Notes: generated from the sequence alone by a model not told the origin. Counted from the first letter of the stretch, positions 694 through 14,179 are shown. The stretch: 14,179 bases of DNA from Sphaerochaetaceae bacterium (GCA_024698005.1 JAILRW010000089.1:1-14179); one strand, 5' to 3'. A program made the numbers and translations.

Positions 694-1491
694 TCAATTA
701 GGGATGGAGAAGAGTTTTTCTGCAGTTCTGTGGAAGATGTTCTCATACTCTTCGCTTGTGAGGTTCAAGGAAAGCATTGCATCAAGCTCAGGATCAACAT
801 CCCACATTGGGAAATCTGAACCAAACATAATCTTTTCAGAGCCGAATGTTCTTATATACTTTTTGACCTTATCTTTTTCTACCCAGTGGAAGGTGGATGA
901 GGTATCTACAAACAAATTGTCATAAGTGTGAAGCCTCTCTACAGCCTCATCCCAGACCGACCAGCCTGAAAAATGAGCTCCGATGAAGGTTGTTTTTGGA
1001 AACATCCTTAACACAGGTTCTAGCTGATCAGGATTGGAGTAGTTATAGCGGTAATCTCCAGTATGGATAAGCACAGGAAGTCTTCCTTCACAAGCCTCGT
1101 AGAGTGGAAGAAGTCTTTTGTCGTTTATTGCACATAACTGTGTATCAGGATGGAGCTTTATACCTTTTAGTCCCAGAGAGATGATTTTATCAACAATTCC
1201 ACCCATATCAGGATAGTCCTGATGTACAGTACCTAGTCCTGTAAAAAAGCCATCTCCGAGAAGAACGGTGTTTGATATGAATGCATTTATACTATCAGTC
1301 TGAGCGAGCCTTGTTGCAACTGAAAAGATCACGGCATGGTCTACGCCACTATTTTCCCAGTGCTTTTTCATGCTGGCTGCTCTGCCATCTCCATAGCTAT
1401 GGATCCCATCATAGAAATCAGAGACACTCTTTACTGCCTTCATGGCAATTGCCTCAGGATATACATGACAATGGGAATCGATAATACGCAT
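694..1491 (-). CDS. Amidohydro_2 (PF04909-type) metal-dependent TIM-barrel hydrolase
   Basis: ORF 694-1503. I prefer the ATG at 1491 (MRIIDSHCHVY) because GGAG at 1498-1501 lies 6 nt upstream and the TTG at 1503 sits in the terminator U-tract. Hallmark strand motifs are present: DSHCHV (HxH), GIKLHP, PVLIHTG, GAHFSG, DTSS, IMFGSDFP. Confidence 0.8.
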   Translation of the reverse strand: MRIIDSHCHVYPEAIAMKAVKSVSDFYDGIHSYGDGRAASMKKHWENSGVDHAVIFSVATRLAQTDSINAFISNTVLLGDGFFTGLGTVHQDYPDMGGIVDKIISLGLKGIKLHPDTQLCAINDKRLLPLYEACEGRLPVLIHTGDYRYNYSNPDQLEPVLRMFPKTTFIGAHFSGWSVWDEAVERLHTYDNLFVDTSSTFHWVEKDKVKKYIRTFGSEKIMFGSDFPMWDVDPELDAMLSLNLTSEEYENIFHRTAEKLFSIPN

Positions 1492-1501
1492 ATTTTGCTC
1501 C

Positions 1502-1536
1502 AAAAGAAGCTATATCCGAGAATCCTCGGATATAGC
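1502..1536 (-). terminator. Rho-independent terminator downstream of the oxidoreductase gamma gene
   Basis: Perfect 12-bp inverted repeat gctatatccgag (1509-1520) / ctcggatatagc (1525-1536) with a 4-nt loop. On the minus strand it is followed by UUCUUUU (1508-1502). It lies 33 nt after the stop codon at 1570-1572. Confidence 0.8.
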
Positions 1537-1569: not shown

Positions 1570-2106
1570 TTACTCTTCTATATAGTTATAGCCAGCATCA
1601 ATTGCCTTCAAGTTGAGATCGTACATCTCTGGATGTTTTGCAGAGACGACCTTCTTGAGAGCTTCTTCAAGATAACCTCTTGAGAGTTCAGAATCCTTCA
1701 GCACCTTACCGATAAGTACGATGTTTGCAAGATTTGAAGCGCCAATATCCTGGGCAATTTTAGTTGCAGGAATATAGAAAGCTTCTACATCTTTTCTCTG
1801 TACCTTTCTTCCGACCAAGGATGAGTCGACAAAAATTGCACCACCTGGTTTTACAGTAGATTCATAACGATCTAAGGAAGGAAGGTTCATTACAATGAGA
1901 ACATCAGGATTATCGATGATAGGGGAACCGACAGGCTCGTCACTGATAGTGACAGAGCAGGAAGCAGTACCACCTCTCATTTCAGGACCATAGGAAGGGA
2001 GCCAAGAGAGCTCTTTTCCCTCTGAAAGTGCCTTGTAGGCAAGCAGCTTGCCAGAGAAGAGAATACCCTGACCTCCGAAACCAGCGATGAGAATCTGTGT
2101 TGTCAT
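1570..2106 (-). CDS. 2-oxoacid:ferredoxin oxidoreductase, gamma subunit
   Basis: 178 aa. The N-terminus [22 protein letters not shown] carries the GGQG motif typical of POR/KOR/VOR gamma subunits. The ATG at 2104-2106 overlaps the beta stop codon (ATGA), indicating translational coupling. Confidence 0.85.
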
Positions 2107-2855
2107 GCCTTTGCCTCCTGGTCCTTATCCTTGAAAACTCCGAGTGGGTAGTAAGGAATCATGTTGTTATCAACCCATTCAAGTGCCTTCTGAGGTGTCA
2201 TGCCCCAGTTTGTAGGACAAGCTGAGACAACTTCGATAAGTGAGAAGCCCTTACCCTCAATCTGGTTTCTGAAAGCCTTTTCAATTGCTTTCTTTGCTTT
2301 GAGTACATTCTTTACATTGTTTGCTGCAACACGCTCAATGTAGTATGGAGCATCGAGTGCAGAAAGCATCTCACAGACTTTGATAGGATAACCTGCGACC
2401 TTTACATCACGGCCATAAGGTGAGGTCTGAGTGACCTGACCTGGCAGTGATGTAGGAGCCATCTGGCCACCTGTCATACCATAGATTGCATTGTTGACGA
2501 AGATGATTGTGATATTCTCATTTCTGGTAGCAGCATGGACTGTTTCAGCCATACCGATACTAGCGAGGTCTCCATCACCCTGATAGGTAAAGACAATATT
2601 TCCAGGAAGAGCTCTCTTGATACCTGTTGCAACTGCAGGTGCTCTGCCGTGAGCGGCTTCTACCATATCACAAGAGAAGTAATCATAAGCCATAACAGCA
2701 CAGCCTACTGGTGCAACACCAATAGTTCTTCCTTCGATGCCGAGTTTGTCAATTGCCTCTGCTACGAGACGATGGATGATTCCATGAGGACAACCTGGAC
2801 AGTAGTGGAGCTCCTTTGAAGTGAGGCTCTTTGGTTTTTCAAATACAATTGCCAT
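2103..2855 (-). CDS. 2-oxoacid:ferredoxin oxidoreductase, beta (TPP-binding) subunit
   Basis: TPP motif YQGDGDLASIG...IIFVNNAIYGMTGGQ and the CPGCPHG cysteine cluster. I chose the start at ATG 2853-2855 (MAIVFEKPK) because it overlaps the alpha stop codon (TAATG). The extra 35 codons in the ORF-track call (to 2960) lie inside the alpha CDS. Confidence 0.85.
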   Translation of the reverse strand: MAIVFEKPKSLTSKELHYCPGCPHGIIHRLVAEAIDKLGIEGRTIGVAPVGCAVMAYDYFSCDMVEAAHGRAPAVATGIKRALPGNIVFTYQGDGDLASIGMAETVHAATRNENITIIFVNNAIYGMTGGQMAPTSLPGQVTQTSPYGRDVKVAGYPIKVCEMLSALDAPYYIERVAANNVKNVLKAKKAIEKAFRNQIEGKGFSLIEVVSACPTNWGMTPQKALEWVDNNMIPYYPLGVFKDKDQEAKA

Positions 2856-3922
2856 TAGTTCTTTCCTCCTTCTGCAAGTTCCTTTGTGACCTTGATAATC
2901 TGATCGACACTTGGAATCATACCGCCAGCTCTGTTGCAAAGAACAACAGGTCTGAGGCACTCTTCTGCGAGTTTTACATCTTCGATCATCTGACCCATTG
3001 AAAGCTCTACACTGACAAAGCCTTTTACCTTATCGGCTGCTTCTCTGATTGCCTTCTTAGGGAATGGCCAGATTGTGATAGGTCTGATAAGACCGACCTT
3101 CAAGCCTTCCTTTCTCATAGCTGTGATTGCATTCTTTGCAACACGAGCTGCAATACCAAAAGCAACGAGAGCATAATCTGCATCGTCCATCATATAGCTT
3201 TCGTATCTGACCTCGTTCTTTTCGATTTCAGCGTAGCGTTCGAAACGCTCGAAGTTGGTCTTCTCAAGTACTTCTGGGGAAAGATAGAGGGAGTTGATTA
3301 TATTGTGTTCTCTCTTCATCTGTGTACCAGTTACAGCCCAAGGCTTTTCTATTCCAGATTCTTTTTCTTCAGGCAGGGCAACTGGCTCCATCATCTGGCC
3401 CATTGTACCATCAGCAAGCAGCATTGCAGGACAGCGATACTTATCGGCAAGATCGAAAGCGAGGCTTGTAAGGTCTGCCATTTCCTGAACAGAACTAGGT
3501 GTGAGAACTATAAGATGATAGTCTCCATGTCCACCGCCTTTGGTTGCCTGGAAGTAGTCGGACTGGGATGGCTGGATGCCACCAAGGCCTGGACCACCTC
3601 TCTGGACGTTTACAATTACTGCTGGAAGATCTGCACCAGCAATGTAAGAAATACCTTCCTGCTTGAGTGAAATTCCAGGGGAGGAAGAGCTGGTCATAAC
3701 ACGCTTACCGGTGCCTGCGACACCGTATACCATGTTGATTGCACTGATTTCACTTTCAGCCTGTAAAAAGACACCGCCTTCCATCTTGGGAAGCTTCTTT
3801 GCCATGTAGGCAGTAAGCTCTGTCTGTGGAGTGATCGGGTAACCGAAATAATGTCTGCAGCCAGCACGGAGAGCAGCCTCTGCAATGGCCTCATTTCCTT
3901 TCATCAATACTTTTTCTGGCAT
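2855..3922 (-). CDS. 2-oxoacid:ferredoxin oxidoreductase, alpha subunit (VorB/KorA-like)
   Basis: MPEKVLMKGNEAIAEAALRAGCRHYFGYPITPQTE is the typical alpha-subunit N-terminus. The start at ATG 3920-3922 is preceded by AAGGGGG (3928-3934) at 5-nt spacing. The ORF-track start at 3943 would overlap the delta gene. Confidence 0.85.
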   Translation of the reverse strand: MPEKVLMKGNEAIAEAALRAGCRHYFGYPITPQTELTAYMAKKLPKMEGGVFLQAESEISAINMVYGVAGTGKRVMTSSSSPGISLKQEGISYIAGADLPAVIVNVQRGGPGLGGIQPSQSDYFQATKGGGHGDYHLIVLTPSSVQEMADLTSLAFDLADKYRCPAMLLADGTMGQMMEPVALPEEKESGIEKPWAVTGTQMKREHNIINSLYLSPEVLEKTNFERFERYAEIEKNEVRYESYMMDDADYALVAFGIAARVAKNAITAMRKEGLKVGLIRPITIWPFPKKAIREAADKVKGFVSVELSMGQMIEDVKLAEECLRPVVLCNRAGGMIPSVDQIIKVTKELAEGGKN

Positions 3923-3932
3923 CCGAACCCCC

Positions 3933-4139
3933 TTATCTCTCAACCGTTATAACGCAGTCTGGACACATAGTTGCGCAGAATGCACAAGCTATGCACTTGC
4001 TCTGGTCAGTCATTACGGCAGGGTTGTGTCCCTTTTTGTTGATCTTGTTTCTGTCAAGCGCAAGTATGTGCTTTGGACAGGCGTCTACACAGAGCCCACA
4101 GCCCTTGCAGATGTCCTCATTGAATGTCACTTTCGCCAT
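3933..4139 (-). CDS. 2-oxoacid:ferredoxin oxidoreductase, delta subunit (2x[4Fe-4S] ferredoxin)
   Basis: 68 aa with two CxxCxxCxxxCP motifs (CKGCGLCVDACP and CIACAFCATMCP). It sits immediately upstream of the alpha subunit, giving the delta-alpha-beta-gamma order of four-subunit VOR/KOR/POR enzymes. Confidence 0.85.
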   Translation of the reverse strand: MAKVTFNEDICKGCGLCVDACPKHILALDRNKINKKGHNPAVMTDQSKCIACAFCATMCPDCVITVER

Positions 4140-4155
4140 AGGAATACCCCATAAT

Positions 4156-4800
4156 TTATATTTCGAATGGTCGTCTCTGAAGTTTCAGAGGGACCATATC
4201 CTCAGTTGCAATACTCTCTTCTGCAGCAGTATAGACAAGAGGAAGAAAAGTGGTCTCAGAGAGCTTCTGGGCTCTCTCATAAGTTGCTTGTATCTTCTCT
4301 ACTGTTGTCTCCTGTCCCAGATTCGAGTTGTTTATTATCCCAGTGAATTTAAGTCCACACGCTCCCTCTATCTCCCTCATGACCTCGATAGCTTCATCAA
4401 CTGTAGTAGTAAGAGGGCGATAAAAGTTGACGACATAGAACATGTCATAGTCATTTTCTTCCAAGATATATGGAACAAAACGGCCAAGAGCATAGGCTCC
4501 ACGGTCATCACCTCCGATATCGAGAACGGCGTAGCGGCTTTTATCCTCCACCAGAGCATACGTCTCGCTTGGTAAGGCAGGTAGGTCAACGCTACTGTTT
4601 GCAAACGGTAGCGCTATTACCTTTACACCTTCTTTTTCAAGCAGGTCTTTACTATCCTTGGACCTGAAATATGGGTTAACTATGTCTATATCTGCCAGAC
4701 TTACAGGAAGATTCTTCCTTCTGAGATAGAGGGCATAGTTTACGGCAAGATTGGTCTTGCCACTGCCATAGTGTCCACAGAATAGTGTCATTCTCTTCAT
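4156..4800 (-). CDS. P-loop NTPase of unknown function
   Basis: Walker A GHYGSGKT near the N-terminus and a Walker-B-like hhhhD segment AVLDIGGDD. The ATG is 3 nt after the aminotransferase stop codon. I could not assign a finer family by eye. Confidence 0.6.
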   Translation of the reverse strand: MKRMTLFCGHYGSGKTNLAVNYALYLRRKNLPVSLADIDIVNPYFRSKDSKDLLEKEGVKVIALPFANSSVDLPALPSETYALVEDKSRYAVLDIGGDDRGAYALGRFVPYILEENDYDMFYVVNFYRPLTTTVDEAIEVMREIEGACGLKFTGIINNSNLGQETTVEKIQATYERAQKLSETTFLPLVYTAAEESIATEDMVPLKLQRRPFEI

Positions 4801-4803
4801 GTT

Positions 4804-5898
4804 TTAAGCCTTGAGACCGAGCTTGTAGACCCAGCCCATGAAGTCTTCAACCTTGCCAGTCTGCATACCGTAGAGGTTGTCATAGAGCTTCTGAGCAACA
4901 GGACCGACCTTGCCATCACCTACGACGTAATCTTCACCCTTTACACAGAGTGTGCCGATAGGGGAGATGACTGCAGCAGTGCCGGAAGCGAAGATTTCCT
5001 TGAGGTGACCGCTCTTGCTTGCTTCCATGATCTCATCAATTGAAAGCTTTCTTTCTGTAATCTTGATGTTCCAGTGCTTGAGGAGCTGGATTACAGAGTC
5101 ACGAGTGATACCAGGAAGGATTGTCTCAGAGTCGAGTGGGGCTGTAATTACCTCATCATCGATCATGAAGAAGGCGTTGGATGTACCAATCTCTTCAACA
5201 TACTTGTGTTCAGCAGCATCGAGCCAGAGTACGTCCTTACAGTTGTACTTCATTGCATCCTGGCTTGCTCTCATGCCACCACCGTAGTTGCCACCGACCT
5301 TTGCATAGCCTGTGCCACCCTTGGCAGCACGGATGTACTTATCCTGGACGTAGATTCTAGTTGTAGATAGACCTCCATCGTTAGCAGCATAGTAGGAACC
5401 GGTTGGAGAGAGGATTACCATGAAGCGGTAGTGCTTTGCAGGAAGTACAGAGAAGGAAACCTCATCACCAAAGATGAATGGTCTGATATACAGTGCAGTA
5501 CCTGGTGCAGTTGGAACCCAATCAATATCTTCCTTGATAACAGCCTTGATACCAGCAAGAAGAATGTCACCTGGGAGCTCAGGAATACACATTCTTTCAT
5601 TGGTGCGTGCCATTCTCTTGACGTTCATATCTGGTCTGAAGATCTGGATATCGCCTTCGCTGGTTCTGTAAGCTTTCATGCCCTCGAACATCATCTGAGC
5701 ATAGTGAAGTACGCAAGATGCTGGTTCAATAAGAATTGGTTCGTGTGGAACAACTCTACCATCGTGCCATCCCTGACCCTCATCCCAGTCCATGCAGAAC
5801 ATGTGATCGGTGAAATACTGTGCGAATCCGAGCTTGGTCTGGTCAGTTGGCCTCTTTTTCGGATGTGTGGTCCTAGTTACTGGAAAATTGTACTCCAT
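4804..5898 (-). CDS. ilvE: Branched-chain amino acid aminotransferase (fold-type IV)
   Basis: GFAQYFTDHMF, HYAQMMFEGMKAYR, ALYIRPF, LSPTGSYY, GGTGYAKVGGNYG, EIGTSNAFF and LPGITR closely resemble long-form BCATs such as Bacillus YbgE/YwaA. I chose the start at ATG 5896-5898 (MEYNFPV) because AAGGAG lies 9 nt upstream. The ORF-track start at 5925 is a TTG that overlaps the preceding gene. Confidence 0.9.
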   Translation of the reverse strand: MEYNFPVTRTTHPKKRPTDQTKLGFAQYFTDHMFCMDWDEGQGWHDGRVVPHEPILIEPASCVLHYAQMMFEGMKAYRTSEGDIQIFRPDMNVKRMARTNERMCIPELPGDILLAGIKAVIKEDIDWVPTAPGTALYIRPFIFGDEVSFSVLPAKHYRFMVILSPTGSYYAANDGGLSTTRIYVQDKYIRAAKGGTGYAKVGGNYGGGMRASQDAMKYNCKDVLWLDAAEHKYVEEIGTSNAFFMIDDEVITAPLDSETILPGITRDSVIQLLKHWNIKITERKLSIDEIMEASKSGHLKEIFASGTAAVISPIGTLCVKGEDYVVGDGKVGPVAQKLYDNLYGMQTGKVEDFMGWVYKLGLKA

Positions 5899-5921
5899 AA
5901 AGCATATCTCCTTTTCCATAA

Positions 5922-6710
5922 TCAATTTACTTTGTATATATCAGGTCTTCTATCAGCAAAGACATTGATACTTGTTCTTATACCATCGAGAATGCTTGGG
6001 TCAAGAGTTGCATAAAGTATTTCTTCCTTATCCTTTGCATGTGCGATGGTTTCTCCCCATGGATCTGTAACAGAGCTGTTACCACCAAATACAGTTCCTG
6101 GAGCCTTGCCTGCTGAATTGCAGCAGACGACAAACATCTGGTTCTCAATAGCTCTTGCTTTTGTGAGTGCATCAAGGTGAGGCACTCTGACAAGTGGCCA
6201 CTGGGATACCATGAAGAGAACGTCGAGTCCCTTTGTGCTCATTGTTCTGATGAGCTCAGGGAAGCGAACGTCATAACAGATAATTACACCACATTTGAGT
6301 CCATCGAGGGTGAAGGTGGAAGTGTGGTTTCCTTTTTTGAAGAACTTGTCTTCCCCCATTGGTGAAAATAGGTGAGTCTTATCGTACTCAGCTACTACAT
6401 TTCCCTCGCGGTCGAATGTGTAGGATGTGTTGTAGATACCATCTGCTTTTTTATTGGCAATACTACCTGCAACAATGTTTACACCCAGCTCCTTGGCAAG
6501 AGGAGAGAATGTCGCTTTAAGCATTGCACCATCCTGATCTGCAAGCTTTTCCAGGTTTTCCTCTGGGAAAAAACCTACATTCCAGGTCTCTGGCAGAAGA
6601 ATGACATCAGGCTTCTTCTCTGCTGCTTCACGCACAAGAGCTACTGCCTTCTTGAAATTGTCTTCTGGCTTTGCAAAAGCCATATCCATTTGAATACAAG
6701 AGACCTTCAT
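5922..6710 (-). CDS. Carbon-nitrogen hydrolase (nitrilase superfamily; omega-amidase/Nit2/MtnU-like)
   Basis: 262 aa. Glu-Lys-Cys triad contexts are present: ILLPETW, YDKTHLF, GVIICYDVRFPE. GAGGAGG lies upstream of the ATG at 6710. Confidence 0.8.
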   Translation of the reverse strand: MKVSCIQMDMAFAKPEDNFKKAVALVREAAEKKPDVILLPETWNVGFFPEENLEKLADQDGAMLKATFSPLAKELGVNIVAGSIANKKADGIYNTSYTFDREGNVVAEYDKTHLFSPMGEDKFFKKGNHTSTFTLDGLKCGVIICYDVRFPELIRTMSTKGLDVLFMVSQWPLVRVPHLDALTKARAIENQMFVVCCNSAGKAPGTVFGGNSSVTDPWGETIAHAKDKEEILYATLDPSILDGIRTSINVFADRRPDIYKVN

Positions 6711-6721
6711 TATCTTCCTCC

Positions 6722-8983
6722 TCAGAGCATATTGCGGATAATCTTTCCGCTGATTGTCTTAGGAAGCTCGTCCCTGAAGACAATCTGTCTTGGATACTTG
6801 TAAGGTGCGGTGTGCGACTTTACATAGTTCTGGATTTCCTTCTTGAGATCCTCTGATGGTTCTGTTCCCTTTGTAAGAACGATAGATGCCTTTACAATCT
6901 GTCCTCTTACAGGATCTGGAGCAGCAGATACACCACACTCGAGAACGTAAGGGAGCTCCATGATTACAGACTCTACTTCGAATGGTCCGATTCTGTAGCC
7001 AGAGGACTTGATGATGTCGTCTACGCGACCGACATAGAAGAAGTAGCCATCCTCATCCTGCCATGCAGTATCACCTGTGTGGTAGAATCCATCGTGGATT
7101 GCTTCCTTGGTCTTCTCCTCATCCCTGTAGTACTCAGTAAAGAGACCAACTGGTCTTCCTTCAGAAAGATCGATGACGATTTCACCAACTTCACCTGGTG
7201 GTACTGGCTTTCCTTCATTGTCAACAAGCATGACCTTGTACTGAGGAGAAGCCTTACCCATAGAACCGAGCTTGACCTTTCCACCACCGAAGTTTGCAAC
7301 GGTAAGGGTTGTTTCGGTCTGGCCAAAGCCTTCGCAGATCTCCAATCCTGTTGCCTTGTAGAACTGTGTTGCAACCTCTGGGTTGAGTGCTTCGCCAGCT
7401 GTGGTCATATGCTTGACTGAACTGAAGTTGTACTTTGAGAGATCCTCTTTTATCATCATCCTGAGCATTGTAGGAGGTGCACAGAAGGTCTTGATCTGGT
7501 AGTTTGCAAACATAGGCATGATATCGTCTGCGTGGAAGCGATCGAAGTCGTAGACAAAGACAGCGCCTTCACACATCCACTGGCCATAGAGCTTGCCCCA
7601 GAGGGACTTGCCCCAGCCGGTATCGGAGATGGTGAGGTGAAGTCCATCAGGCTCGCAGCAGTGCCAATACTTTGCAGTGAGGAAGTGACCCAAAGCATAG
7701 GTGTGCTTGTGCTCGACCATCTTTGGGTTTCCTGTAGTACCAGAAGAGAAGAACATGAGTGCGGCTTCATCACCACATGGAGTCTTATCAGTTCTTCTGA
7801 GGGAGCTCTTGAATCTTGGATACTCCTCATTGAAGTCTCTCCAACCATCTCTCTGACCATTTACGATCATCTTGAGCTTAAGTGTTGGACAGTTTGGCTG
7901 TACCTTATCAACTGTTTCTGCACAGTCTCCATCAGCAGTACATACGATTGCCTTTATACCTGCAGCGTTGAAGCGGTATTCGAAGTCGTGCTCTCTGAGC
8001 TGGTAGGTTGCAGGAATAGCAACTGCTCCGATCTTGTGAAGAGCAACCATAGCAGGCCAGAACTGGTAATGTCTCTTGAGAACAAGCATTACCTTATCCC
8101 CTTGTTCGATTCCCAATGAGAGGAAGTAGTTTGCGACTCTGGCACTTTCCTTCTTTATATCCATGAAGGTAAGACGACGCTCTACCTTGTTCTTGTCAAG
8201 GTGGATCATAGCAAGTCTATCAGGATACTTTTCAGCAATTGCATCGACAACATCGTAACCGAAGTTGAACTTCTCTGTATTCTTGAATTTGACGTCTTTC
8301 AGGACACCCTTTTCATCTTCGATACAGTCGACGAACTTGTTGATAAGCAGTTTGCGTGTTGATGGTGCAGGTGCAAGAGATGCAGCTATGCTTGTATCAC
8401 CATTCTCATCCTCGCCAGGAAGGACAACTGCTACGAAGAGACAGTCCTTGCCGTCGATTGCAATCATGCCGTGTGGGGTAGAGGAGTTGTAATAGATACA
8501 GTCACCTTCATGGAGAACTTCCTTATTGGTTCCGACCTGTACAAGGAGAGAACCCTGGATGACGATATCGAATTCCTGTCCAGCGTGGGTTGCAAGCTGG
8601 ATTGGTTTTCCCTGAAGTTCTTCCGAGTAGTCGTACTTTACCCAGTAAGGCTCTGCAATCTTGTTCTTGAATTTAGGAGCAAGGTTCTGGATATCTATAC
8701 CCATCTCCTTTGCGGTCTGCTGACCCATGCCCTTACGGGTTATTGTGTAGGATGAAAGTCTTGTAGAATGACCTTCAAGCAGATCGGTAATATCGATTGC
8801 GAAAACCATTGCACACTTGTGAATGAAAGAGAAAGGAAGGTCTGCTTCTCCACTTTCATAAGCCTTGTATTCTGCAAGGGTCAGGTCAGTTTTCTGAGCC
8901 ATGGTGTTCTGAGAGAAACCCATGATCTCGCGCATGTCTCGAATTCTGGATGCGACTTCCAGAAGCTGTGATTCAGTATCCAC
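6722..8983 (-). CDS. Fusion protein: XRE-type HTH plus cupin (aa 1-190) joined to an ACSM-type medium-chain acyl-CoA synthetase (aa 211-753)
   Basis: GTG start at 8983 with GGAGG (8990-8994) 6 nt upstream. The N-terminus (REIMGFSQNTMAQKTDLTLAEYKAYESG) is an HTH_3-like segment. It is followed by cupin strands (HAGQEFDIVIQGSL...LHEGDCIYYNSSTPHGM). The C-terminal 540 aa carry AMP-binding motifs FFSSGTTGNPK, DTGWGKSLW, GFGQTETT, YHTGD, GRVDDIIKSSGYRIGPFEVE and LPKTISGKIIR, and resemble ACSM/MACS enzymes (APDPVRGQIVKA, APYKYPRQIVF). Confidence 0.85.
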   Translation of the reverse strand: MDTESQLLEVASRIRDMREIMGFSQNTMAQKTDLTLAEYKAYESGEADLPFSFIHKCAMVFAIDITDLLEGHSTRLSSYTITRKGMGQQTAKEMGIDIQNLAPKFKNKIAEPYWVKYDYSEELQGKPIQLATHAGQEFDIVIQGSLLVQVGTNKEVLHEGDCIYYNSSTPHGMIAIDGKDCLFVAVVLPGEDENGDTSIAASLAPAPSTRKLLINKFVDCIEDEKGVLKDVKFKNTEKFNFGYDVVDAIAEKYPDRLAMIHLDKNKVERRLTFMDIKKESARVANYFLSLGIEQGDKVMLVLKRHYQFWPAMVALHKIGAVAIPATYQLREHDFEYRFNAAGIKAIVCTADGDCAETVDKVQPNCPTLKLKMIVNGQRDGWRDFNEEYPRFKSSLRRTDKTPCGDEAALMFFSSGTTGNPKMVEHKHTYALGHFLTAKYWHCCEPDGLHLTISDTGWGKSLWGKLYGQWMCEGAVFVYDFDRFHADDIMPMFANYQIKTFCAPPTMLRMMIKEDLSKYNFSSVKHMTTAGEALNPEVATQFYKATGLEICEGFGQTETTLTVANFGGGKVKLGSMGKASPQYKVMLVDNEGKPVPPGEVGEIVIDLSEGRPVGLFTEYYRDEEKTKEAIHDGFYHTGDTAWQDEDGYFFYVGRVDDIIKSSGYRIGPFEVESVIMELPYVLECGVSAAPDPVRGQIVKASIVLTKGTEPSEDLKKEIQNYVKSHTAPYKYPRQIVFRDELPKTISGKIIRNML

Positions 8984-8998
8984 AACTTACCTCCGTAT

Positions 8999-9045
8999 AA
9001 AAAAAGCTCGTCTCAAAGACTTGCGAATTATCTTTGAGACGAGCT
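8999..9045 (-). terminator. T-box expression-platform terminator
   Basis: 15-bp perfect stem AGCUCGUCUCAAAGA (9045-9031) / UCUUUGAGACGAGCU (9019-9005) with an 11-nt loop, followed by a run of U to 8999. The 5' arm (CUCAAA, 9038-9033) can alternatively pair with UUUGAG (9093-9088) of the T-box motif to form the antiterminator. Confidence 0.9.
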
Positions 9046-9287
9046 ACATATCCAATCAAAGAATGAGATATGATACCCGCGGTACCACTCAAATTGCGCA
9101 TTTCTGCGCCACTCAGGCTCTATCAAGCCGTATGCCCTAACGCGGCAGGATCGGGGGCCCATTACTCACCATAAAATGGCTTTCCTTTCCCCAGCTCGGA
9201 AGTGATAGGATTACAGGCCCTTCGCTACTGGCTCACACCGTACCCAGCTCGCTGATGCTATCTTCCTGGTCCCTCTTCGTCTTAGCT
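8999..9287 (-). promoter_or_regulatory. T-box riboswitch leader (tRNA-sensing transcription attenuator), probable Ile (AUC) specifier
   Basis: Read on the minus strand. The K-turn-like stem I base is AGC-UAA-GA-C-GAAG (9287-9275) with CUUC-C-GA-GCU (9202-9193). AG box AGCGAG is at 9253-9248. The distal stem CUGG/CCAG carries a loop containing GGUGUGAG (9239-9232). Stem III is GCGCA-GAAA-UGCGC (9109-9096). The T-box motif AAUUUGAGUGGUACCGCGGG is at 9095-9076, and its UGGU bulge implies an A73 tRNA. An antiterminator/terminator alternative is present. The candidate specifier AUC (9206-9204) plus purine A (9203) lies directly 5' of the closing CUUC. Confidence 0.85.
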
Positions 9288-9296
9288 ATTAATTCG

Positions 9297-9325
9297 CTTT
9301 TACCATTTCAGAAAAAAAGAGTCAA
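9297..9325 (-). promoter_or_regulatory. Putative sigma-A promoter for the T-box leader
   Basis: Minus strand: -35 TTGACT (9325-9320), 17-nt spacer ending in TGG (extended -10), -10 TAAAAG (9302-9297). The -35 element overlaps the TGA stop codon (9322-9324) of the upstream ligase gene. The -10 is weak, so this call is tentative. Confidence 0.4.
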
Positions 9326-11778
9326 CAAAGATTGAACCTTTTTTCTGAAACCTCTTTCATTTTATATTTCAAGATCTTTCCCGCAGCGTTCATTGGGAAA
9401 CTTTCTACGAATACAAAGTAGCGAGGCACCTTGTGCTTTGCCATTGATTTGTAACCGTAATCCTTCATCTCTGCTTCGTCTGCACTCTGGCCATCATGCA
9501 AGATTACCCAGGCACAGGCCTCCTCGCCATAGACGTTATCCTTGACGCCGACTACCTGAACATCCTTTATCTTTGGATTTGTGAGATAGAACTCCTCGAT
9601 TTCTCTTGGATAGATATTCTCTCCTCCACGGATGATCATGTCCTTGAGACGACCTGTTACCTTGAAGTAGCCATCTGGGGTGCGGCAGCAGATATCGCCT
9701 GTATGGAGCCAACCATCGGCATCGATGGTCTTTGCTGTAGCTTCAGGCATCTTGTAGTAGCCTTTCATTATGTTGAAGCCTCTGGCAACGAACTCTCCAT
9801 TTTCTCCATCTGGCAGGTCTTTGCCAGTTTCAGGATCGATGATCTTGCACTCGACACCAGGGAAGGCAGAGCCTACAGTGTCTACTCTGTGGTCAAGGTC
9901 CTCATTTACTTCTCCCATGGTACAGCCAGGGGAGGATTCAGTCTGGCCGTATACGGACAGGATTTCCTTCATGTTCATTTCAACAGAGGCTCTTCTCATA
10001 AGATCTGCAGGGCAGTTTGCACCAGCCATGATTCCGGTTCTCATGTATGAGAAATCGGTCTTGGCAAAGTCAGCATGGTTGAACATTGCAATGAACATTG
10101 TAGGAACACCATTGAAGCAGGTGATTTTCTCTTGGTTTATGCAAGCAAGTGATGAGCGGGGTGAGAAGTATGGCATTGGACAGATGGTTCCACCGTGAGT
10201 CATCAGGTTAGTCATAGAAAGTACCATACCAAAGCAGTGGAACATAGGGACCTGGATCATCATTCTGTCTGCAGTAGAGATGTCCATTCTATCCCCGATA
10301 GTCTTACCGTTGTTGATGATATTCTTATGTGTCAGCATGACTCCCTTAGGAAAGCCAGTGGTTCCTGATGTGTACTGCATGTTACATACATCATCAGGTC
10401 TTACCATTGAAGCTCTTCTTCTGACCTCTTCCTGAGGAATGCTATCTGCACGCTCAAGCATCTGGTCCCAGTTGAGAGCCCCTTCCATGTCGAACCCGAC
10501 AGTTATTACATTTCTCAAAAAAGGCAGTCTCTTGGCAAAGAGAGGTTCTCCCTTCTTGTGCTTTTCAAGCTCAGGACAGAGCTCCTGGACAATTTCCTTG
10601 TAGCCAATATCCTTGAGGCTCTCGATCATGACGAGAGTGTGGGTATCTGACTGTCTGAGAAGATACTCGACTTCATGGATTTTATAAGCTGTGTTGACAG
10701 TGACAAGTACGGCACCGATCTTGGTCGCAGCCCAGAAGGATAAAAACCAGGCTGGGATGTTGGTTGCCCAGACAGCTACGTGGTAGCCAGGCTTTACTCC
10801 AAGGGAAATAAAGGCAGCAGCAACTGTATCTACATCCTTCTTGAATTCACTGTATGTCCTTGTGTAATCAAGGGTTGTATATTTGAATGCATACTGATCC
10901 GGATACTTTTCAGCCATAGTATCCAGAACCTCTCCAAAAGTTTTGTTTATAACCTTGTATTTCTTCCAAGGGAATGTGCCTGTTCTAGAGCGATTGAAAT
11001 AGATGGTGTCCTTCTTCTGGTTCTCTCCAGAAAGACGGGAGATGAAGGTTCCAAAGTGAGTGAGAACGATATCTGCATCCTGAACTTCATCATTCCAGTC
11101 AACTGCGAAGAAGCCTTCGTAGTTGAGGGACCTCAGGGCCTTGAGGAAATCCTCAACAGGAAGCTTTCCTTCACCGATAAGGACATTGGTATCATCAAGG
11201 CGGTCACCGATACGGACATATCGAATGTAGGCACCAAGTGTCTTTATTGTAGTCTCTGCACTCTCTCCTGCGAAGAAATAGCTCTCTCTAACATTCCAGG
11301 CAGCCCCGATAGCAGGGGAAGCAAAGACATTTATTATATCCAGAAGCTCACTGGTCTTTGAGAGAGGACCACTAGTTTCAAAGAGGATATCAATATTCTT
11401 CTTTTCCGCTATTTCTATGGCCTGCTCAAACTTCTTCAGGAGCTCTGTTGCATCCACTTGATCATCGATAGATACGATTACATTCTCAACTGATGATAGG
11501 GCAGCCATATCAATATACTGGACGAGAGATACAGCTGAAACCTCAGCGTGGTTTACTGGAAGAGGAAAGGTGATCGCGGAAACTTCTACAGAGTGGTTTC
11601 TCTGGGCAATTCTTCCTTCAGAGATCGACTCTGCTCTCAGAACACTGTCCGAGTGCTTATTTCTCTCTTCTGCTGCATCGTAGATTTCAAAACCATCCAT
11701 GCCATATTCAGAGGCAAAGCGACAGAGTGATGAGAAGGATGGCAGGTCAACATATCTTGTTGAAAAAGCTATCTTCAT
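9322..11778 (-). CDS. Fusion protein: xylose-isomerase-like TIM barrel (aa 1-250) joined to an AMP-dependent acyl-CoA ligase (FadD/ACSF2-like, aa 270-818)
   Basis: The N-terminal segments GMDGFEIY, ILFETSG, YIRYVRIGD and GEGKLPVEDFLKALRSLNYEGFFAVDW follow the pattern of AP_endonuc_2 / sugar-phosphate isomerase-epimerase barrels. The C-terminal part has QYTSGTTGFPKGVMLTH, YGQTESSP, GWLHTGD, GRLKDMIIRGGENIYPREIE and NAAGKILK. The ATG at 11778 overlaps the stop codon of the upstream gene by 4 nt (ATGA). Confidence 0.8.
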   Translation of the reverse strand: MKIAFSTRYVDLPSFSSLCRFASEYGMDGFEIYDAAEERNKHSDSVLRAESISEGRIAQRNHSVEVSAITFPLPVNHAEVSAVSLVQYIDMAALSSVENVIVSIDDQVDATELLKKFEQAIEIAEKKNIDILFETSGPLSKTSELLDIINVFASPAIGAAWNVRESYFFAGESAETTIKTLGAYIRYVRIGDRLDDTNVLIGEGKLPVEDFLKALRSLNYEGFFAVDWNDEVQDADIVLTHFGTFISRLSGENQKKDTIYFNRSRTGTFPWKKYKVINKTFGEVLDTMAEKYPDQYAFKYTTLDYTRTYSEFKKDVDTVAAAFISLGVKPGYHVAVWATNIPAWFLSFWAATKIGAVLVTVNTAYKIHEVEYLLRQSDTHTLVMIESLKDIGYKEIVQELCPELEKHKKGEPLFAKRLPFLRNVITVGFDMEGALNWDQMLERADSIPQEEVRRRASMVRPDDVCNMQYTSGTTGFPKGVMLTHKNIINNGKTIGDRMDISTADRMMIQVPMFHCFGMVLSMTNLMTHGGTICPMPYFSPRSSLACINQEKITCFNGVPTMFIAMFNHADFAKTDFSYMRTGIMAGANCPADLMRRASVEMNMKEILSVYGQTESSPGCTMGEVNEDLDHRVDTVGSAFPGVECKIIDPETGKDLPDGENGEFVARGFNIMKGYYKMPEATAKTIDADGWLHTGDICCRTPDGYFKVTGRLKDMIIRGGENIYPREIEEFYLTNPKIKDVQVVGVKDNVYGEEACAWVILHDGQSADEAEMKDYGYKSMAKHKVPRYFVFVESFPMNAAGKILKYKMKEVSEKRFNLC

Positions 11779-13169
11779 TTCTGGCTCTCCTCATAGGCAA
11801 TCTTGTTGAGTGCGTTGATGTATGCACGTATTGAAGCACCGACGATGTCGGAAGAAAGGCCATTTCCTGAGTAGAGCTTTCCATCACTTCTAAGTCTTAC
11901 AAGAGCACTTCCCAATGATTCCTTGCCTTCTGTTACTGCCTGGATCTGGAAATCATCAACCTCATACTGGTGTCCTACACACTGTTCTATTGCCATGAAG
12001 GCTGAATCGATAGGGCCACCACCTACGCCATTGCCACTGAGGTTTTCACCTCCCTTGTCGAGAACAACGTTGGTAACGCTGTTTACCTTGTTTGAGGTAG
12101 TAACAACGAAGGAAATCAAGTTGTAGGTTGCAGGGAACTGCATTGCACTTGATGCAATTATTGCCTCAAGCTCCTTGCTGGAAATGGAAGATTTCTTCTC
12201 GCAAAGGCTCATGAGAGCTTCGTAGACCTTGCCATTGTCATCTGGAGAGAGGTCGTATCCCAAGGATTTAACTGCTTCGGTTACCTGCTCTATGGAGCTT
12301 TCAGAGTCGAGGAAGATTGCTGAACCATCGAGGTGGAAATCCTCTTCCTCCTTCTTCTTGTTCTGTATCTTCTTGAGCATTGATTCGATATCGGAGTGAA
12401 GCTCAGTAAAGCGCAGGTTTGTAGCGATATCGAGATCACTTCCCTTGATCTTGAGAGCCTGGGCAAAGCTGTCGATTTTCAACGCATCCTTACCGTTTAT
12501 GCTGACTTTGACGCCATCTACGCCTGCCTTTATGGCCTGGAGAGCATTGGCAACAGCAAGGCTTATGCTATCAGATACTTTTACCATTACAGGAAGCTTT
12601 ACATTCTCTTTTATCTCTTTTACGAGAAGTGCGAAATCCTCTGGCATCAAGATTCCTGCATCATCAGAGATTGTGATGATGCCAGCACCTGCTTCCTTTG
12701 CAGCCTTGCAGGCCTGGATCAGGATTTCCTTGTCACTTCTTGTTGCATCGAGGGCCTCGAATTCTACATCTTCACAAACTCCTCTAGCCGCAAGCACAAG
12801 CTCCTTGAGCTTTTCAAGAAGTTTAGGTTCCTTAAGCCTGTACAGATACTCCATCTGAACGGTTGAGACAGGAAGTGAAATCTGAAGCCTTGGATGGAAT
12901 GCACTCTTGATGGATTCTGCAGCCAGCTTGACCTCTTCAACTTTGATTCCTGCAGGGATTGCAATGATTCTGTTCTTTACAGATTCAGAGATTGTCTTTG
13001 CGACAATCTTGTCTTCTCTAGGGTTCTTTATATAAGGTAGTTCGATCACATCAGCACCGTACCTACATAGACCTAGGGCAATAGCAAGCTTTTCTCTGAA
13101 TAAAAGCTGTGACTTTCCACTGCCACCAAGTTCTTTCAATGTGTAATCGGAAATAGTGATTCTTCTCAT
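11775..13169 (-). CDS. 2-isopropylmalate/citramalate synthase-like protein with a degenerate active site and a conserved LeuA-type C-terminal regulatory domain
   Basis: Start at ATG 13167-13169 (MRRITISDYTL) with AAAGGAG (13175-13181) 5 nt upstream. It is colinear with LeuA: the HMGL-like barrel (VEFEALDATR, ITISDDAGILMP, LAVANALQAIKAGVDGVKVSING) and the C-terminal domain (GNGVGGGPIDSAFMAIEQ...GKESLGSALVRL...GNGLSSDIVGASIRAYINALNKI). The catalytic motifs are replaced; see findings. Confidence 0.75.
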   Translation of the reverse strand: MRRITISDYTLKELGGSGKSQLLFREKLAIALGLCRYGADVIELPYIKNPREDKIVAKTISESVKNRIIAIPAGIKVEEVKLAAESIKSAFHPRLQISLPVSTVQMEYLYRLKEPKLLEKLKELVLAARGVCEDVEFEALDATRSDKEILIQACKAAKEAGAGIITISDDAGILMPEDFALLVKEIKENVKLPVMVKVSDSISLAVANALQAIKAGVDGVKVSINGKDALKIDSFAQALKIKGSDLDIATNLRFTELHSDIESMLKKIQNKKKEEEDFHLDGSAIFLDSESSIEQVTEAVKSLGYDLSPDDNGKVYEALMSLCEKKSSISSKELEAIIASSAMQFPATYNLISFVVTTSNKVNSVTNVVLDKGGENLSGNGVGGGPIDSAFMAIEQCVGHQYEVDDFQIQAVTEGKESLGSALVRLRSDGKLYSGNGLSSDIVGASIRAYINALNKIAYEESQK

Positions 13170-13216
13170 GTGATCTCCTTTCATGCTATTTGAGTAAATA
13201 GCTTTGCATGCTCACA

Positions 13217-13244
13217 ATTATTGCGAAACAGTTTAAAGAGTCAA
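13217..13244 (-). promoter_or_regulatory. Putative sigma-A promoter for the synthase-like/ligase genes
   Basis: Minus strand: -35 TTGACT (13244-13239), 16-nt spacer, -10 AATAAT (13222-13217). It lies about 45 nt upstream of the ATG at 13169, inside a 412-bp AT-rich intergenic region. Confidence 0.45.
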
Positions 13245-13581
13245 CAGAGTTTAGAATTCAAATCAATATAATTTTGTTTAAAAACTACATAATTATGCAA
13301 AAAGTTGCAAAAAAACATTTTGATGATAATCTGTTGTTTTAATAATAACAAATATAGCTCTCTCCAAATGTATGAATCGCTTGAATTTGCAGATATGAAA
13401 ATGTACATAAAGAGTTAAAAAAATAACTCTGAGTATGCGGGAAATGGAATTGCTAATGACAATTAACAGGAGTGTTGAAGTAATAATACAGGTATGTAGG
13501 CATCTCAATACAAATACTTCAGGCCTGTTTGAATCTGATATTAATAATATGTATATAGGTTGGTTATCAGATTATTTGCTC

Positions 13582-13905
13582 TCACATGATTCTGATAAGA
13601 AGCATGTAGCAAAGTGTTCCCACAATTATAGAAAGGTACATGTTCCTTCTTGTCCACTGAAGTAGGACTACAAGGAGGGATGAGATTATTTCAGGTAGAC
13701 CGAAAGGGTAAGAGGTGAAGTTACTGTTCCTGAGCAGGTAGATGACAAGGGTTGTCATTATGGCAGGTGGCAGCACTTTGCCAAGGTAAGAAAGCCACCA
13801 AGGGAGGCTTTTACCGGAAAAGAGCAGGAATGGAAGTGCTCTGAGAGTTGTTGTAACAGCTGCAATTGTCAAAATTGATACCAGGATTGTGGCTGTATCA
13901 TTCAT
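13582..13905 (-). CDS. azlD: Branched-chain amino acid transport protein AzlD
   Basis: 107-aa hydrophobic protein (LRALPFLLF...LPPAIMTTLV...) with the size and pattern of AzlD. Its ATG (13903-13905) overlaps the end of the upstream AzlC-like ORF by 8 nt. Confidence 0.8.
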   Translation of the reverse strand: MNDTATILVSILTIAAVTTTLRALPFLLFSGKSLPWWLSYLGKVLPPAIMTTLVIYLLRNSNFTSYPFGLPEIISSLLVVLLQWTRRNMYLSIIVGTLCYMLLIRIM

Positions 13906-14179
13906 ATATGATTCCCTCCTGCTTTTCTATTTTCCTGTGAAGAGTGATGAGGAGAATGGATGTGATAATGAGGGATGGGATAATGAAGTAATCCTTTCCG
14001 ATCAGCACAATCAGAACAAGGGAAACTGTTGATGCCAGGAAGAAGGGCAGTTTTGTTCTATACCTTCTTATCTGGTCTACTACAACTACTATGAAAAGGG
14101 CAGTTGCAGAGAAATCGATGCCTGCCGTATCGATACCGAATGCTCTTCCTGTGTAGGCACCGATGAAACAGCCAACAAT
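13898..14179 (-). CDS. azlC: AzlC-family branched-chain amino acid permease/exporter subunit, C-terminal part (start lies beyond the window)
   Basis: Not in the ORF track because no start codon falls in the window. My manual translation of the minus strand from 14179 gives IVGCFIGAYTGRAFGIDTAGIDFSATALFIVVVVDQIRRYRTKLPFFLAS...HRKIEKQEGIIYE, ending at the TGA at 13898-13900. It is hydrophobic, AzlC-like, and sits in the canonical azlC-azlD arrangement. Confidence 0.65.
   Translation of the reverse strand: MVGCFIGAYTGRAFGIDTAGIDFSATALFIVVVVDQIRRYRTKLPFFLASTVSLVLIVLIGKDYFIIPSLIITSILLITLHRKIEKQEGIIYE

Follow-up and report, generated by a model that had tools for sequence, protein, structure and literature searches.

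Gene and domain organization

A contig of 14,179 nucleotides from a Sphaerochaetaceae bacterium (GCA_024698005.1 JAILRW010000089.1:1-14179), referred to at its full length as the window, carries a single string of genes on the minus strand that extends from approximately position 13250 to 694. The subject of this work is a gene near the start of that string, whose product is colinear with 2-isopropylmalate synthase (IPMS; LeuA) but has lost the residues required for catalysis while retaining the LeuA-type regulatory domain. It overlaps the gene that follows it, which encodes a TIM barrel fused to an AMP-forming acyl-CoA ligase. The two genes comprise the following features.

11775..13169, minus strand: coding sequence of the putative LeuA-like pseudoenzyme, 464 amino acids plus stop codon
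12396..13160, minus strand: degenerate HMGL-like (DRE-TIM) barrel, residues 4-258
13122..13142, minus strand: TLKELGG, remnant of the TLRDGEQ active-site motif, residues 10-16
12294..12395, minus strand: unconserved Lys/Glu-rich linker in place of the deleted subdomain I, residues 259-292
12150..12293, minus strand: helical subdomain II with the motif LGYDL...VY..F, residues 293-340
11778..12149, minus strand: LeuA-type regulatory (dimerization) domain, residues 341-464
11775..11778, minus strand: ATGA, shared by the end of the pseudoenzyme gene (stop codon) and the beginning of the ligase-fusion gene (start codon), read directly in the sequence, with GGAGAG 8 nt upstream
9322..11778, minus strand: TIM-barrel/AMP-forming acyl-CoA ligase fusion, 818 amino acids
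10999-11778, minus strand: xylose-isomerase-like TIM domain of the fusion, approximately residues 1-260

The window protein is 100% identical to the NCBI 'hypothetical protein' K6G51_04250 from a Sphaerochaetaceae metagenome-assembled genome (MAG). The ATG at 13169 is the likely start codon, as AGGAG lies 6 nt upstream and homologues begin with MRxIxISD; the upstream ATG at 13184, offered by the open reading frame (ORF) lister, was rejected on ribosome-binding-site spacing and on the N-termini of the homologues. Pfam assigns residues 4-258 to HMGL-like (PF00682, 1.1e-32) and residues 329-457 to LeuA_dimer (PF08502, 1.2e-28). None of the LeuA equivalog models of NCBIfam gives more than 268 bits (cut-offs 532-748), the best being NF002086 (267.8 against 532) and TIGR00973 (240 against 598.7).

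An AlphaFold2 model, computed as a monomer from 83 homologues, has a mean predicted local distance difference test (pLDDT) score of 80.9, exceeding 90 in the barrel and falling below 50 in linker residues 273-283. When the model was compared with solved structures using Foldseek the top match was the methylthioalkylmalate synthase (MAMS) BjMAMS (6E1J). The barrel superimposes on solved IPMS with a root-mean-square deviation of 1.8-2.1 A (3RMJ_B, 1.8 A over 278 columns), the template-modelling (TM) scores with 3EWB and 3EEG are 0.90-0.91, and Mycobacterium tuberculosis LeuA (MtLeuA), including the Leu-bound structure 3FIG, is matched over its full length at E of about 1e-17. An earlier reading of the DNA sequence on its own (the original prediction) had described the protein as colinear with LeuA, and both the Pfam matches and the fold match to IPMS chains bear this out. 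The ORF, the domains, the stop/start overlap and the motif changes that it listed are likewise found at the coordinates that it gave, with refinements to one loop and to subdomain I that are described below.

Loss of the catalytic apparatus

The residues of the window protein were mapped through a HMMER alignment to solved IPMS and MAMS chains and through a second alignment, made with MAFFT, that includes Escherichia coli LeuA. The alignment with the BjMAMS chain 6E1J reproduces the residue numbers of the mutagenesis study of that enzyme (PMC11532901), and thus the window residues can be read against its variants, whose phenotypes are taken from the same source and given in brackets.

Arg89, active-site Arg: K12 in the window protein (R89K inactive)
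Asp90, metal ligand: E13
Gln93, positions acetyl-CoA: G16 (Q93N inactive)
Glu227, supports Tyr399/His388: L140 (E227A and E227D inactive)
Thr257, binds substrate: D170 (T257A inactive, T257S active)
His288 and His290, metal ligands: K197 and S199
His388, general base, and Tyr399, its stacking partner: absent, both lying in the missing subdomain I (most His388 variants inactive)

Both alignments agree that TLRDGEQ has become T10-L-K12-E13-L-G-G16, that the HxH motif reads K197-V-S199, that the catalytic Glu of 'CEDAGR' is L140 and that the substrate Thr of 'PDTVG' is D170. The first two changes had been predicted as such (residues 10-16, at 13122-13142, and KVSDS at residues 197-201). Two further changes had been predicted, one as a substitution and one as an apparent replacement by a Lys/Glu-rich linker, and these need amendment. 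The NGIGERAGN loop is indeed altered, but by a four-residue deletion of GIGE(R) and not by residue-for-residue substitution; the HSSGIHQDG subdomain is indeed lost, with the linker found there instead, but subdomain I (about 40 amino acids) was deleted outright and not replaced position by position. The latter deletion is present in 106 of 106 family representatives aligned with MAFFT, and that of the GIGER loop is near-universal, with gaps in 92 to 105 of the 106 at its four columns. In the same 106 sequences the former catalytic columns are unconstrained: the Asp column reads E18/Q13/N11/K10/D9/S9, the first metal-His column E24/Q14/S11/C10, and the second S59 together with other residues.

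Of the DRE-TIM features the fold is kept, family members vary at the Arg and Asp columns, and only the beta-2 Glu (E43) persists, which corresponds to the 'E' of DRE (E72 of HMG-CoA lyase). A carboxyltransferase identity (pyruvate carboxylase or oxaloacetate decarboxylase alpha subunit) was considered and rejected: the matches are weak and partial (E of 1e-13 to 1e-6, residues ~149-297), and at the corresponding metal site the window protein reads S168-D-D-A-G and K-V-S, not HxH and the Lys of 'KDMAG', the strand that presumably holds the carbamylated lysine. HMG-CoA lyase was discarded on similar grounds, its matches being weak and partial and its metal ligands absent too.

Catalytic loss is thus indicated by profile- and structure-based alignments, by mutagenesis of the aligned BjMAMS residues and by columns that drift within the family. 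Every column of the Arg/Asp/His/His set is substituted in the profile alignment, and the set is not kept. The protein is in all likelihood catalytically dead, a pseudoenzyme whose barrel, judged by its residues, is predicted no longer to bind metal, 2-oxoacid or acetyl-CoA. Functionally it falls outside the IPMS enzyme family, four of whose six defining features were looked for and are lacking.

An inverted pattern of conservation

When 1.84 billion cluster representatives were searched exhaustively with HMMER, more than 100 full-length relatives (455-480 amino acids, 32-61% identity) ranked ahead of ordinary proteins of LeuA length. The family comprises at least 106 clusters at 50% identity and shows the same degenerate pattern throughout. 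Its members derive from Clostridia (Christensenellaceae, Oscillospiraceae and 'Clostridiales'), from Spirochaetales MAGs and from one contig that needs UGA to be read as Trp, and are named at source 'hypothetical', 'alpha-isopropylmalate synthase regulatory domain-containing protein' or, at JGI, '2-isopropylmalate synthase'. A scan of genome contigs with the single window protein gave five loci, two of which hold true family members with usable context, and a homologue search that started from a Christensenellaceae member returned MAG proteins alone and no cultured host. The contig that requires UGA=Trp (L012, 1-4533) has seven in-frame TGA codons in its ligase gene; both genes of the pair are present, and its pseudoenzyme is 32% identical to that of the window.

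Conservation is distributed within the protein as follows.

Barrel: pairwise identity 33%, columns at least 90% conserved 5.8%
Linker: pairwise identity 16%
Subdomain II: pairwise identity 41%, columns at least 90% conserved 12.5%
Regulatory domain: pairwise identity 57%, columns at least 90% conserved 25.4%

This is the inverse of what is expected of an enzyme, since the regulatory domain is the best-conserved part. Ten columns are invariant and about 46 near-invariant in the family. In the barrel F24 and K113 are 100% conserved, as are, at 87% or more, P100, S102, Q105, M106, E107 and Y108, which follow beta-4 on the old active-site face. The family therefore combines the two properties of a pseudoenzyme, catalytic residues that are lost yet purifying selection that is kept.

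A separate group of LeuA-like proteins of about 500 amino acids has motifs that are partly degenerate (L011 2005-3516, P0255; L013 8001-9494, P0243; P0239; P0248), for example TLCEGER with HSQND or TLRDGAE with HCHNT, and has lost HSSGIHQDG. One of their genes lies directly upstream of a LeuC-like gene and another adjoins the gene for an acetohydroxyacid synthase small subunit. These proteins may be intermediate stages or independent decays.

The regulatory domain

The original prediction held the C-terminal LeuA-type domain to be well conserved, and it is the most conserved part of the protein, retaining both its Gly-rich loops and the glycine at the E. coli G462 position. Its motifs in the window are G383-G-G-P-I-D-S, an ELDDF-like segment at 403-407, G415..G420 and G435-x-G-x-S-S-D-I. 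In the family two Gly-rich loops, G383-x-G385-P-I-D and G435-x-G437-x-S/T-T-D441-I, precede two helices, with G383, G385, G435, G437 and D441 invariant, and a third loop spans G415...G420. G420, which is Gly in 99% of the family, aligns with E. coli G462, and G462D is the classical feedback-resistant allele.

A single-sequence search of the PDB reached no solved regulatory domain. A profile built from 15 sequences of the C-terminal domain was used instead, and matched the regulatory domain of Leptospira citramalate synthase (3F6G, 9.5e-10) and MtLeuA (1SR9/3FIG, 1e-4). In the resulting alignment G531-N-G-P-L535-A536 of MtLeuA lies opposite G383-G-G-P-I387-D388 of the window protein, and V551, Y554, A558 and A565 lie opposite V404 (Leu in the family), F407, A411 and S418 (Ala in the family). 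E. coli LeuA has V/L/Y/A/A at the pocket-aligned positions, and the window residues are the same or conservative changes. The site in the M. tuberculosis enzyme is a hydrophobic pocket at the dimer interface, in which the leucine carboxylate lies between the N-termini of two helices, with a capping loop (PMC11057210). Both sequence features of a LeuA-type allosteric domain, the two Gly-rich loops and the hydrophobic pocket positions, are thus present in the window protein, and the domain is kept under strong selection.

Coupling to a TIM-barrel/ligase fusion

The ligase domain of the downstream fusion is intact and highly conserved, retaining the ANL core motifs YTSGTTGFPKG, YGQTE and GRLKD. 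Viewed from the pseudoenzyme side, the next gene encodes the TIM-ligase fusion in 10 of 10 loci (the window, L002, L006, L008, L009, L010, L012, L094, L095 and L096), and the pair is held down to 32% identity and in the organism with UGA=Trp, the two genes usually overlapping or being separated by at most 30 nt. From the ligase side, 80 metagenome loci with relatives of the TIM domain were collected, 66 of which have enough upstream sequence; a pseudoenzyme gene lies directly upstream on the same strand, with a gap of 0-29 nt, in 48 of these. The remaining 18 form a separate subclade, next to AraC and a B12-radical-SAM gene (for example L052 and L067). The coupling to the ligase fusion that had been proposed from the stop/start overlap is hence conserved across phyla. 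The gaps of 0-29 nt and the overlaps suggest matched expression, and a conserved genetic link to one catalytic partner, as a HisZ-like arrangement entails, is in place.

The metal site of the TIM domain differs between the two groups of fusions. Where no pseudoenzyme accompanies the fusion the ligands E/D/H/H/E are invariant (21-22 of 22 per position), whereas in the paired clade they decay (D30/N26, H33/R26, E31/D14/other), and in the window the five positions read E134/N162/R164/R189/D227. An intact ligase preceded by two TIM barrels that have both degenerated, as in the window, would be more consistent with docking or regulation than with catalysis.

Leucine-specific T-boxes

Rfam T-box leaders immediately precede the pseudoenzyme gene in 15 relatives, most of them Bacillota (L002, L008, L009, L010, L024, L029, L032, L033, L035, L039, L042, L057, L081, L095 and L096). 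The specifier was read from cmscan alignments in the register codon, one base, five bases, GAG, and is a leucine codon in all 15 leaders (CUC in 14, CUG in one). By comparison, the leaders that precede the cupin-ligase genes described below read AUC, for isoleucine, in L010, L024, L033 and the window. A T-box turns on the genes behind it when the matching tRNA lacks its amino acid, which argues that the pair serves the supply of leucine and not its breakdown; a role in leucine supply is accordingly very likely.

The consistent Leu specifier also narrows the candidate ligand of the regulatory domain to leucine. The protein had been predicted to sense a branched-chain amino acid (BCAA) or a 2-oxoacid. 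The first part of that idea is favoured, in the specific form of leucine, by the 15 leaders; the second is not supported, because the ligands for 2-oxoacid and metal are precisely what has been lost.

The regulatory elements of the window itself are listed here.

13217..13244, minus strand: promoter-like TTGACT-16-AATAAT upstream of the pseudoenzyme gene
9061..9292, minus strand: T-box leader preceding the second ligase gene and the shared aminotransferase and oxidoreductase genes, its specifier reading AUC (Ile)
8998..9045, minus strand: intrinsic terminator after the T-box, with a 15-16 bp stem and a T run, read directly

Related spirochaete loci share the -35 element GTTGAC(A/T)C; an alignment of seven such upstream regions revealed this promoter-like box alone and no leader RNA. 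The Ile T-box of the window scores 46 bits, below the Rfam gathering score of 93. T-boxes are mainly a feature of Bacillota, and the clostridial counterparts have full-scoring T-boxes, which would fit acquisition of the operon from Clostridia. In the spirochaete loci, the window included, no T-box precedes the pseudoenzyme gene, and there the pseudoenzyme could be the sole leucine-responsive element.

The remainder of the operon

Downstream of the TIM-ligase fusion, and separated from it by a 340-nt spacer, the gene string continues with the following features.

6722..8983, minus strand: helix-turn-helix (HTH)-cupin module fused to an MbcS-like acyl-CoA synthetase, 753 amino acids
5922..6710, minus strand: carbon-nitrogen hydrolase
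4804..5925, minus strand: branched-chain amino acid aminotransferase (BCAT; NF009897, 446 bits against a cut-off of 307)
4156..4800, minus strand: CbiA/ParA-like P-loop protein
1570..4139, minus strand: 2-oxoacid:ferredoxin oxidoreductase, four subunits
3933-4139, minus strand: delta ferredoxin subunit of the oxidoreductase, 68 amino acids, 2x[4Fe-4S], missed by ORF lists with a minimum of 80 amino acids
2855-3943, minus strand: alpha subunit (VorB model, 553 bits against a cut-off of 399)
~2103-2960, minus strand: beta subunit
1570-2106, minus strand: gamma subunit
694..1503, minus strand: Amidohydro_2 protein

In the window, L002, L006, L009, L035 and L094 the pair is joined by genes for BCAT and a VorB-type oxidoreductase, and L008 and L096 carry the pair with neither. 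Rumen organisms classically convert branched short-chain acids to BCAA by AMP-forming ligation, then ferredoxin-dependent reductive carboxylation, then transamination (PMC2812497).

The Amidohydro_2 gene is the commonest gene directly after the pair, occurring there in 22 metagenome loci (for example L042 6490-7290), and is also found in L008 (13968-14768); its product has no NCBIfam match, and the nearest solved chains are uncharacterized (3IRS). The carbon-nitrogen hydrolase gene shares 4 nt with the beginning of the BCAT gene, and its product scores below cut-off against the nitrilase, amidase and deaminated-glutathione amidase models; it could be an omega-amidase that pulls glutamine-dependent transamination forward. 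Fusions of an XRE-type HTH, a cupin and an MbcS-like synthetase also occur in L006 (14254-16569) and, as two consecutive copies of which the leading one has an Ile T-box in front of it, in L010 (14322-16589 and 16941-19238). Each branched-acid ligase seems to carry its own N-terminal sensor-like module. The CbiA/ParA-like protein matches no NCBIfam family and may be an Fe-S or assembly factor; a similar gene lies between those for BCAT and the oxidoreductase in several phyla (L002 7374-8039, L035 7546-8151 and L094 10664-11335).

Upstream of the operon, across an AT-rich spacer of 410 nt, are genes for AzlD (107 amino acids) and the C-terminal part of an AzlC-like membrane protein (13582-14179, minus strand), a branched-chain amino acid transporter pair that adjoins the gene pair in no other locus examined. 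A fragment encoding a DUF4037 protein at the other end of the contig (4-585, plus strand) appears unrelated to the operon.

A candidate leucine-feedback subunit

We propose that the pseudoenzyme binds leucine and, without catalysing a reaction itself, acts as a regulatory partner that confers feedback sensitivity on the co-translated ligase, which is probably specific for isovalerate; we assign this proposal a probability of about 0.5. The protein, a catalytically dead paralogue of the bacterial short-form IPMS, would dimerize through its LeuA domain and, like IPMS, take up L-leucine where the two subunits meet. It would associate with the TIM-barrel/AMP-forming ligase encoded by the overlapping downstream gene, and this contact would render the activity of the ligase leucine-dependent. 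The ligase would catalyse the ATP-consuming entry step, from isovalerate to isovaleryl-CoA, which the VorB-type oxidoreductase would reductively carboxylate to 2-oxoisocaproate, the substrate from which BCAT would form leucine by transamination. A route that does not involve IPMS would in this manner gain an IPMS-like end-product feedback, exerted on a separate and unrelated enzyme. In this scheme we infer leucine binding, complex formation, the direction of regulation and the identity of isovalerate as the substrate.

Several observations weigh against this proposal. The conserved patch on the barrel (P100-V-S-x-V-Q-M-E-Y108, K113, F24 and D141-A-T-R144) could be a ligand site and not a docking surface. 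The structural model is a monomer, and residues 406-435 of the regulatory domain have low confidence in it, although uncertainty in part of this domain is expected because the domain is dimeric in IPMS. The residues used as leucine contacts in MtLeuA (reportedly those of Koon et al. 2004) are putative; what PMC11057210 confirms is the general character of the site. The score of the partner ligase against PRK12583 (649 bits against a cut-off of 832) is below that which would assign a substrate. The Amidohydro_2 protein, whose gene most often stands third, plays no part in the three-step route proposed. Finally, no Leu T-box precedes the window gene, the interval 13100-13650 returning noise alone at E <= 10.

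The alternative that withstands the evidence best, though we regard it as unlikely, is that the protein serves the TIM-ligase as an indispensable structural or activating subunit, in the manner of a scaffold or chaperone, or forms a bridge from the ligase to the oxidoreductase, and that it is blind to leucine and retains its C-terminal domain only for dimerization. Such a subunit would account for the conserved gene pair and its overlap, for the decay of the partner's TIM metal site only where the pseudoenzyme is present, and, as PF08502 domains dimerize as well as being allosteric, for the retention of the domain. Dimerization alone, however, leaves the near-invariant, carboxylate-holding Gly loops and G420 unexplained, and the Leu-specific T-boxes point to leucine as the relevant metabolite.

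It is more doubtful that the barrel has been repurposed, acquiring a new metal-independent active or ligand site that, together with the TIM domain and Amidohydro_2, catalyses an unrecognized step in the supply of leucine. The conservation of F24, K113 and P100-Y108 on the old active-site face could be read in this way, as could the 22 loci in which pseudoenzyme, ligase and Amidohydro_2 form a triad without assigned chemistry. The barrel, however, is the least constrained folded part of the protein (33% identity), all known catalytic positions drift, and the element S-x-x-[HQ]-M-E-Y is also present in ordinary LeuA (the Listeria and Neisseria chains), indicating that it is ancestral and not new.

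Less probable again is that the protein binds leucine independently of the ligase and acts elsewhere, for example on BCAT, the oxidoreductase or AzlCD, its place beside the ligase gene reflecting shared regulation alone. AzlC and AzlD do lie directly upstream in the window, and BCAT and the oxidoreductase are often in the operon, but no neighbour other than the ligase is invariant: BCAT and the oxidoreductase are missing from L008 and L096, AzlCD is found in no other locus, and the short gaps and overlaps suggest that expression is matched to the ligase. That the gene is a decaying, functionless remnant of leuA, as the lost catalytic residues alone might imply, is hardly credible and is refuted by conservation, with intact, full-length ORFs in at least 106 clusters from Bacillota, a code-4 lineage and Spirochaetota.

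Beyond the proposal of a leucine-responsive partner for the ligase, we advance more tentatively a wider interpretation: that a LeuA pseudoenzyme was exapted as the trans-acting leucine-feedback subunit of a non-homologous isovalerate-CoA ligase, with a TIM barrel turned docking domain, and that, together with Leu and Ile T-boxes, cupin-ligases, the VorB-type oxidoreductase and BCAT, it may define an end-product-controlled pathway from branched short-chain fatty acids to BCAA in gut and rumen anaerobes. That rumen organisms reductively carboxylate isovalerate, 2-methylbutyrate and isobutyrate, yielding Leu, Ile and Val, was established decades ago by labelling and nutrition studies. The searchable literature yielded no gene-level account of the isovalerate-to-leucine route, and no gene set or control logic tied to this pseudoenzyme family. 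Loci of the type described here supply such a gene set, with separate Leu and Ile ligases that each have their own T-box and N-terminal sensor-like module. They also call for a correction of annotation, as the JGI name '2-isopropylmalate synthase' would wrongly credit genomes with the IPMS step.

Comparison with known systems

No LeuA pseudoenzyme of this kind was found described in the searchable literature. The nearest known proteins are the bacterial short-form LeuA enzymes (TIGR00973/PRK00915; 3RMJ, 3EWB and 3EEG), which share the order barrel, subdomain II and LeuA_dimer and are the best NCBIfam matches. The window protein, however, is without the Arg, Asp and Gln of TLRDGEQ, the Glu, the Thr, both His, the GIGER loop and subdomain I, and scores less than half of the equivalog cut-offs. 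The regulatory domain has the same duplicated beta-beta-beta-alpha fold and Gly-rich loops as those of MtLeuA (3FIG, Leu-bound) and Leptospira citramalate synthase (3F6G/3F6H). In contrast with these enzymes, the window domain, a putative leucine binder, would act on a separate, non-homologous enzyme and not on its own barrel; if this is true it would be the first LeuA allosteric domain to act on a different enzyme. BjMAMS (6E1J) is, like the window protein, a descendant of LeuA whose function was changed by the loss of a domain. The two are mirror images, as MAMS kept catalysis and lost the regulatory domain (PMC11532901), whereas the window family kept the regulatory domain and lost catalysis.

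Support for branched short acids as substrates of the operon comes from MbcS of Staphylococcus aureus (NF047394), the best NCBIfam match of the second ligase in the window (442 bits against a cut-off of 850). That ligase differs from MbcS in having an N-terminal HTH-cupin module, and the partner ligase of the pseudoenzyme belongs to a different, PRK12583-like subfamily.

As separate BCAA-binding regulatory subunits in the synthesis of BCAA, IlvH and IlvN of acetohydroxyacid synthase offer a functional parallel. Unlike the window protein, however, they have an ACT fold, are not dead copies of an enzyme, and regulate an enzyme dependent on thiamine diphosphate. A conceptual precedent is provided by HisZ, a catalytically inactive paralogue of HisRS. 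HisZ activates HisG(S) and mediates its allosteric inhibition by histidine (PMC9734150). The concept is the same for the window protein; there is, however, no homology, the partner and the pathway are different, and both complex and allostery are hypothetical. Should the proposal hold, the family would constitute a clean natural case of an enzyme turned regulatory subunit, and would offer a ready-made leucine-binding module for biosensors.

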